Source of the DNA: Escherichia coli
GTDB taxonomy: Bacteria > Pseudomonadota > Gammaproteobacteria > Enterobacterales > Enterobacteriaceae
Length of the DNA: 64,000 nt
NCBI RefSeq assembly: GCF_036507355.1
Contig: NZ_AP027877.1
Direction: 5' to 3' (one strand)
The notes under the pieces are model-generated. The model was not told the DNA's origin and did no database searches. It saw only the letters and a program-made list of their open reading frames with translations. The position numbers were made by a program, and so were the translations under genes. Positions 55,945-56,275 of this stretch are shown in pieces. Every line of letters begins with the position of its first letter. Positions within the stretch are counted from its first letter, which is position 1.

Positions 55945-56275
55945 CGTCAGGCAAGGCTGTTATTGCCGGATGCGGCGTGAACGCCTTATCCGACCTACAC
56001 AGCACTGAACTCGTAGGCCTGATAAGACGCGCAAGCGTCGCATCAGGCAATGCTGTTATTGTCGGATGCGGCATGAACGCCTTATCCGACCTACACACAG
56101 CACTGAACTCGTAGGCCTGATAAGACACAACAGCGTCGCATCAGGCAATGCTGTTATTGTCGGATGCGGCGTGAGCGCCTTATCCGACCTACACACAGCA
56201 CTGAACTCGTAGGCCTGATAAGACACAACAGCGTCGCATCAGGCGCTGCGGTGTATACCTGATGCGTATTTAAAT
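55945..56275. repeat. BIME/REP cluster: three tandem units of about 100 bp
   Basis: Repeated GCCGGATGCGGCGTGAACGCCTTATCCGACCTACA ... GTAGGCCTGATAAGAC... units between pepA and holC. Confidence 0.85.

Follow-up and report, generated by a model that had tools for sequence, protein, structure and literature searches.

What occupies the spacer between pepA and holC in this Escherichia coli chromosome, and does it do anything for the genes on either side of it? In the stretch of DNA analysed here (the window, 64,000 nucleotides), pepA (503 aa; 54430..55941, + strand), in whose 3' flank the repeats lie, is followed by holC (147 aa; 56297..56740, +) and then by valS (56740..59595, +), as read from the list of open reading frames and from the RefSeq annotation of E. 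coli records with 100% identity. A 1.4-kb query around the repeats has a match of 100% identity in E. coli strain PI24, where the RefSeq features are likewise pepA, holC and valS, and the location between pepA and holC given in the original prediction is correct. The 355-bp spacer (55942-56296) holds the entire repeat array, which is therefore extragenic; pepA, the array and holC are co-oriented on the + strand. No REP features are annotated at this locus in the RefSeq copy of MG1655, so that an official REP number cannot be assigned, and a search of main-text literature for pepA-holC REPs or a holC-valS operon returned nothing relevant, the locus-specific data being confined to one supplementary table.

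The account that best joins the observations, and which we regard as very probably right, is that of a three-unit BIME-2 at a polymorphic site, with gyrase and RNA roles that follow from its class, a unit number governed by recombination and RAYT activity, and a presence that the host can do without.

Anatomy and class of the array

Tandem Repeats Finder reports a single tandem array at 55947-56244 with a period of 98, 3.1 copies, 94% matches, no indels and a score of 526, and a repeat search of the window gives start-to-start spacings of 96, 98 and 98. This agrees with the original prediction of three near-identical units of about 100 bp made of paired REPs. Each unit proves to consist of one Y REP and one inverted Z2 REP. 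The Y REP, which ends in CTAC, comes first; a linker of 14-16 nt separates it from the inverted Z2 REP, which starts with GTAG and is followed by a linker of 12 nt. The order Y-S-iZ2-h occurs three times, with tail-to-tail and head-to-head junctions and with CTAC or GTAG at the feet of the REPs. Six complete REPs span 55965-56244, flanked on each side by a truncated Z2 arm, and with these arms the array extends over 55942-56266, so that the range first put forward, 55945-56275, was essentially right.

All parts are described here on the + strand, with linker boundaries taken from segmentation. Comparison with the internal junctions identifies the left edge (55942..55964) as the truncated 3' arm of an inverted Z2 REP (55942-55952, TTGCGTCAGGC) followed by a head-to-head linker, AAGGCTGTTATT. 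Unit 1 comprises a Y REP with 3' CTAC (55965..55998; 97% to the Y consensus, also found by pattern match; hairpin of -15.3 kcal/mol), a 14-nt tail-to-tail short linker (ACAGCACTGAACTC, 55999..56012) and an inverted Z2 REP with 5' GTAG and loop GCGCAAGC (56013..56048; 97% to the Z2 consensus, also found by pattern match; -21.9 kcal/mol), and is separated by the head-to-head linker AATGCTGTTATT (56049..56060) from unit 2. The latter has its Y REP at 56061..56094 (-17.4 kcal/mol), a 16-nt tail-to-tail short linker (ACACAGCACTGAACTC) at 56095..56110 and, at 56111..56146, an inverted Z2 REP with the variant loop ACAACAGC and a weaker upper stem (-15.7 kcal/mol). A second copy of AATGCTGTTATT at 56147..56158 leads to unit 3, formed by a Y REP (56159..56192; -19.2 kcal/mol), a 16-nt tail-to-tail short linker (56193..56208) and an inverted Z2 REP (56209..56244; -15.9 kcal/mol); the REPs of units 2 and 3 are all supported by both consensus and pattern matches. 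The weakened Z2 variant is present in both of these units, which differ from each other at only 2 positions. The right edge (56245..56266) consists of a 13-nt linker and the truncated 5' arm of a forward Z2 REP (56258-56266, CCTGATGCG), recognised by short Z1/Z2 matches. Beyond it, outside the repeat, lies the conserved holC leader TATTTAAATCCACCACAAGAAGCCCCATTT (56267..56296); in a spacer comparison across about 50 Enterobacteriaceae species this leader bounds the variable segment on the right in E. coli, Salmonella, Klebsiella, Leclercia and others.

The queries were consensus sequences of the Y, Z1 and Z2 REPs, validated on solitary REPs elsewhere in the window, which match at 94-100%. With blastn-short the three Y REPs of the array match their consensus at 94-97% and the three Z2 REPs at 92-97%, and degenerate patterns for Y and Z2 have 4 and 5 matches, respectively, in the 64-kb window, against 0.00 expected from 100 shuffles. 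Since the same consensus sequences fit the solitary REPs, those of the array belong to genome-wide families, and a query containing the array matches a median of 36 places per E. coli genome. The solitary copies lie at 19903-19936, 24554-24589 and 51841-51876, the consensus match to the second covering 24558-24589; one is a Y REP on the + strand and two are Z2 REPs with their GTAG-first form on the minus strand. The Y REP at 19903 directly adjoins a match to the IHF consensus at 19891-19903.

Each of the six REPs folds as a hairpin on the sense strand (-15 to -22 kcal/mol), and a 365-nt region containing them gives a folding z of -8.3 on either strand. The truncated edges also take part in folding: the right-edge arm and the 3' arm of the last Z2 REP can form an alternative hairpin (-17.1 kcal/mol, z = -2.8), and the left-edge arm is complementary to the right-edge arm at 56258-56266, both being paired in the minimum free energy fold of the RNA.

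These features place the array in a known class. BIME-2 elements combine y and z2 REPs with a short S linker in multiple tandem copies with varying flanking linkers, and how many copies a particular locus has differs among strains; BIME-1 elements occur as single copies, combine y with z1 and have a long L linker, frequently an IHF-binding one (Ton-Hoang 2012, PMC3333891). The array has every sequence feature of the former, namely Y and Z2 REPs in inverted alternation, short linkers, tandem copies in variable number and an extragenic position. Its tail-to-tail linkers, 14, 16 and 16 nt long, are of the short S type and not the long L type, and the IHF consensus WATCAANNNNTTR has no match in 55942-56296. 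The array shares with BIME-1, RIP and RIB elements the inverted REPs and the location at 3' ends of transcription units, but it lacks a Z1 REP, a long L linker and an IHF consensus, and it is present in three copies where BIME-1 is single. BIME-1 or RIP was accordingly rejected as an identity: Z2 matches run over the full 36 nt whereas Z1 matches are partial and cover only 14 nt. The BIME/REP identity proposed at the outset, said there to be expected for E. coli, can thus be narrowed to BIME-2. The one-unit allele of the same locus in K-12 is itself catalogued as a BIME-2 ('<holC-<pepA', 83 bp; Sutormin 2018, Table DS3), and the pepA-holC array is an ordinary, textbook example of an already-known kind of feature. 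There is no essential difference from the class; that the sequences of its linkers are peculiar to the locus is normal for BIME-2.

Repeat finders can respond to regular palindromic repeats whose period is close to 100 bp, and the same features might be read as a CRISPR or another locus that acquires spacers. That reading is wholly improbable. The segments between the repeats are linkers that stay constant in every unit rather than unique spacers, two repeat types alternate in opposite orientation, and both types belong to the Y and Z2 REP families, which recur genome-wide, in tens of places per genome. A CRISPR array was rejected from the sequence, which has no identical direct repeats with unique spacers. 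The array will be picked up by repeat finders, by CRISPR finders and, as naRNA4, by Rfam; the correct label is a BIME-2 REP array, not a small RNA gene or a CRISPR.

Strand of the naRNA4 matches

In the comparison with Rfam, one of the checks suggested in the original prediction, two units match naRNA4, but only on the strand antisense to the flanking genes. The RF02564 matches are both on the minus strand, at 56016-56091 (82.2 bits) and 56114-56189 (73.2 bits), above the gathering score of 59.5. On these scores, and because a nucleoid role has been reported for the naRNAs of REP325 (Qian 2015), the units might be thought to encode naRNA4-like small RNAs that bind HU and condense the nucleoid. 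We consider this very unlikely. The minus strand is antisense to pepA, holC and valS, and the sense-strand scores, 51.9 and 51.7 bits, fall short of the threshold; two units thus reach the score of the covariance model, though not in its orientation, which is sense to the upstream gene. In REP325 the matches lie on the sense strand, transcribed from yjdM. A simple and insensitive scan for sigma-70 promoters found none on either strand in 55600-56600, and the one-unit allele of K-12 reaches only 37 bits. The nucleoid role is also contested in a preprint from the same laboratories as the 2015 study, according to which neither REP325 nor naRNA4 compacts the nucleoid to a measurable degree (Harris 2026 preprint). 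A naRNA4 small RNA gene was rejected because of the strand; matches on the antisense strand indicate that the model detects the DNA repeat and not a small RNA gene.

REP325 (naRNA1-6, K-12 yjdM-yjdN) is nevertheless among the closest known counterparts. Both arrays have a Y and Z2 architecture and closely similar periods, lie between co-oriented genes and carry a C-rich tail-to-tail linker on the sense strand. REP325 has a period of 100 and 5.8 copies, against a period of 98 and three units here; its head-to-head linker is AGTCGGCACCGTT where the pepA-holC array has AATGCTGTTATT, and its tail-to-tail linker is a 17-nt U motif where the latter has ACACAGCACTGAACTC. They also differ in orientation, in that RF02564 fits the antisense strand here and the sense strand in REP325, which indicates that the pepA-holC array is inverted relative to transcription.

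Variation at the spacer within E. coli and across genera

Comparison of unit number with other strains, also proposed initially, makes three the commonest of several numbers, with about 26% of E. coli carrying no BIME at this position. For this purpose chromosomes were picked at even steps from a ranking of 5,425 complete E. coli genomes, and 59 were classified: 27 have three units, 13 have two, four (K-12 among them) have one, and 15 have an unrelated 133-bp BoxC spacer. No allele of more than three units occurs among these 59. The spacer is 355 bp long in the window and 353 bp in the three-unit alleles of E. coli B and SCZE5, 254-260 bp in two-unit strains and 159-161 bp in the one-unit strains K-12 and E2348/69. 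Across the full set, 4,008 of the 5,425 genomes carry the BIME allele. O157 strains include both three-unit and two-unit alleles, so the number changes within a clonal group.

Segmentation shows the alleles to be mosaics assembled from one set of unit modules. The three units of E. coli B are all distinct; SCZE5 has a unit 2 whose Z2 REP has undergone conversion to the type of unit 3, and in the window this type is seen in the linker of unit 2 as well as in its Z2 REP. The PM4 allele consists of unit 1 plus unit 3, and that of K-12 joins the Y REP and linker of unit 1 (Y1 + S1) to the Z2 REP of unit 3. This is the pattern expected of unequal recombination and gene conversion between units, and it indicates that recombination between repeats adds, removes and converts units. 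Unit-number change is likely to be driven by unequal homologous recombination together with the RAYT/TnpAREP transposase, which cleaves and rejoins single strands of BIMEs at CC^T sites and can assemble extra REPs in vitro, and whose cleavage of REPs needs GTAG and a stem mismatch (Ton-Hoang 2012, PMC3333891). All six REPs of the array contain the GTAG tetranucleotide as well as mismatches inside the stem. The truncated right arm starts with CC^TGATG, which fits a type I site; this resemblance is suggestive only.

The remaining E. coli genomes have a different occupant. A BoxC allele stands in for the BIME in 1,401-1,417 of the 5,425 genomes, 1,401 of them with the full element; it is a 133-bp spacer (E. 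coli NRZ105019, 743-875) in place of window positions 55942-56296. Its motif, CCCTCACCC-TAA-CCCTCTCCC-TAA-GGGAGAGGG, fits the BoxC/PIT/TMECO consensus of Holder 2015 (PMC4666352). Like the BIME, BoxC/PIT/TMECO is an intergenic dispersed repeat tied to local sequence variability (Holder 2015, PMC4666352), and it occupies exactly the pepA-holC spacer in these E. coli genomes and in several other Enterobacteriaceae genera; it differs in belonging to an unrelated sequence family with a CCCTCNCCC/GGGNGAGGG intrastrand-triplex motif, and it is absent from this window. The pepA-holC site in E. coli is dimorphic for two unrelated repeat families, and this alternation at one spacer is a mildly interesting by-product of the analysis.

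A degenerate pattern for the start of holC retrieved 60 Enterobacteriaceae loci from about 50 species, and most of the species examined, indeed nearly every one, carry some short structured repeat in this spacer. BIME-2 is found at the same site in E. albertii (three units), E. whittamii (two units), Escherichia sp. MOD1-EC7003 (one unit) and 'E. coli SCPM-O-B-8794' (NZ_JAATUR010000006.1, a GTDB species representative; four units in a 455-bp spacer). The four-unit array has its own linker variants and is the largest seen at the locus. In the other Escherichia species and in the divergent E. coli MFDS1019527, units are 0.95-0.98 identical within arrays against 0.88-0.94 between them, which points to concerted evolution or independent expansion; the mean unit identity within the array of the window is 0.93, not above the between-array level. 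Salmonella, Klebsiella, Leclercia and Trabulsiella have their own, genus-specific REP types in the spacer, and BoxC-like motifs are found in Cedecea, Buttiauxella, Pseudocitrobacter, Superficieibacter and several Enterobacter spp. The repeat lies directly 5' of a conserved block before holC, ATTTAAATCCACCACAAGAAGCCCCAT, in E. coli, Salmonella, Klebsiella, Leclercia and Pseudocitrobacter; Cedecea, Buttiauxella and others have a different holC leader.

How much of this variation matters to the host can be read in more than one way. Because a quarter of E. coli lack it, the array appears to be dispensable, and the presence of BoxC in about 26% of genomes and of a single unit in K-12, with no known consequence, argues that any function of the array is minor or redundant. 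A rival reading makes it a selfish or neutral variable-number tandem repeat without host function, tolerated and amplified or deleted by recombination or RAYT. We rate this as a serious but minority possibility, roughly one chance in three. It accounts well for a unit number that ranges from one to three in E. coli (one to four across Escherichia) and varies even within O157, for the replacement by BoxC, for mosaic alleles that indicate frequent recombination and for the unrelated repeats at the same site in other genera, but it fits less well with the cleavage of the K-12 orthologue by gyrase in vivo and with the measurable effect of the related REP325 array on neighbouring genes; the structured element found in the spacer of nearly every species also hints that a hairpin after pepA is favoured. 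Taken further, this last point would make the spacer a long-lived 'landing pad' that favours a structured repeat, with the occupant, be it a BIME-2 of 1-4 units, a BoxC triplex motif or genus-specific REPs, and the unit number acting as a strain-specific dial. Such a view is speculative and probably wrong, but if true the dial would determine how stable pepA mRNA is, how much read-through reaches holC (which encodes the chi subunit of DNA polymerase III) and how the DNA is supercoiled locally. The BIME-2/BoxC dimorphism would then be an ancient polymorphism kept up by selection, or else the outcome of both families being targeted, site-specifically, to the same hairpin. We keep to the polymorphic and dispensable BIME-2 as the preferred reading. 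The array is of little importance beyond its correct annotation, with some practical consequences: the unit-number polymorphism can make short-read assemblies collapse at the locus, the four states (BoxC, one, two and three units) are a possible minor typing marker, and the natural allelic series is convenient for testing whether REP arrays tune the expression of neighbouring genes.

Probable roles in DNA and RNA

At the DNA level, the role expected of a BIME-2 concerns gyrase. Topo-Seq places gyrase cleavage sites in the K-12 holC-pepA element under several conditions (Cfx 2, RifCfx 1, Micro 0, Oxo 2; Sutormin 2018, Table DS3). Published data show an excess of gyrase cleavage sites in BIME-2 elements, with Y REPs cut more frequently than Z2 REPs and with cleavage that persists or rises under rifampicin. 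The three-unit allele offers three Y REPs, which, by analogy with the class and with the one-unit K-12 allele, would be preferred DNA gyrase cleavage sites. The suggestion in the original prediction that the array may bind gyrase has locus-specific support in the sites published for the one-unit orthologue.

At the RNA level, the question is what pepA transcripts meet beyond the stop codon. One answer is that the array is itself the intrinsic, Rho-independent terminator of pepA, given the strong hairpins right after the stop codon and a last hairpin that is followed by GUAUUUAAAU. We think this unlikely. A terminator scan of 55600-56600 found no + strand hairpin with a U-tract meeting its criteria, on which ground an intrinsic terminator was rejected; six hairpins also far exceed what a terminator needs, and their sequences are those of dispersed repeat families. 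With no intrinsic terminator predicted before the array, pepA transcripts would run into it and six stable hairpins would form at their 3' end. By analogy with the class, these hairpins (-15 to -22 kcal/mol) may block 3' exonucleases and so stabilise pepA mRNA, and they probably also attenuate read-through into holC, partly via Rho. As the promoter scan is insensitive, holC may have a promoter of its own.

The data on REP325 show what such an array can do and set bounds on what may be expected here. There the upstream mRNA is protected and the downstream gene is attenuated about 8-10-fold, in part Rho-dependently (Harris 2026 preprint), and the array yields a ladder of hairpin-ended RNAs. It takes the full array for Rho to have an effect, REP325 fragments of 2-4 hairpins having no detectable Rho dependence (REP325 study), so that an array of six hairpins may attenuate only weakly. 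The transcript-stabilising role raised in the original prediction thus has support in the class and in the model array REP325 (Harris 2026 preprint), and may hold for the pepA-holC array. In published genome-wide data the upstream/downstream expression ratio is higher for tandem genes with REPs between them, and, also genome-wide, terminal REPs do not lengthen half-lives (Harris 2026 preprint).

A role in translation was considered as well. Translation-regulating REPs start <16 nt past the stop codon, as PMC12306157 reports in citing Liang, Rudd & Deutscher 2015. The gap between the end of the pepA stop codon (55941) and the first complete REP (55965) is 23 nt, outside this limit; a stop-codon-proximal regulatory REP was therefore rejected, and ribosome stalling at the first REP is, from its position, unlikely.

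Two further observations concern the surroundings of pepA. Rfam family Ysr276 (RF02850, 'Yersinia sRNA 276', of antisense type) matches the minus strand inside the pepA coding sequence at 54988-55182 with 174.7 bits, which most likely reflects conservation of the pepA sequence rather than a demonstrated E. coli antisense RNA. Upstream, tRNA-Leu(CAA), which is leuX, lies on the minus strand at 48889-48973, about 5.4 kb from the start of pepA. leuX is a classic island integration site. The corresponding leuX-pepA interval of K-12 is about 10.5 kb long and includes the idn genes, which may therefore be absent from the strain of the window. Farther away, at 32-36 kb of the window, there is a stretch of low GC content (0.38-0.41).
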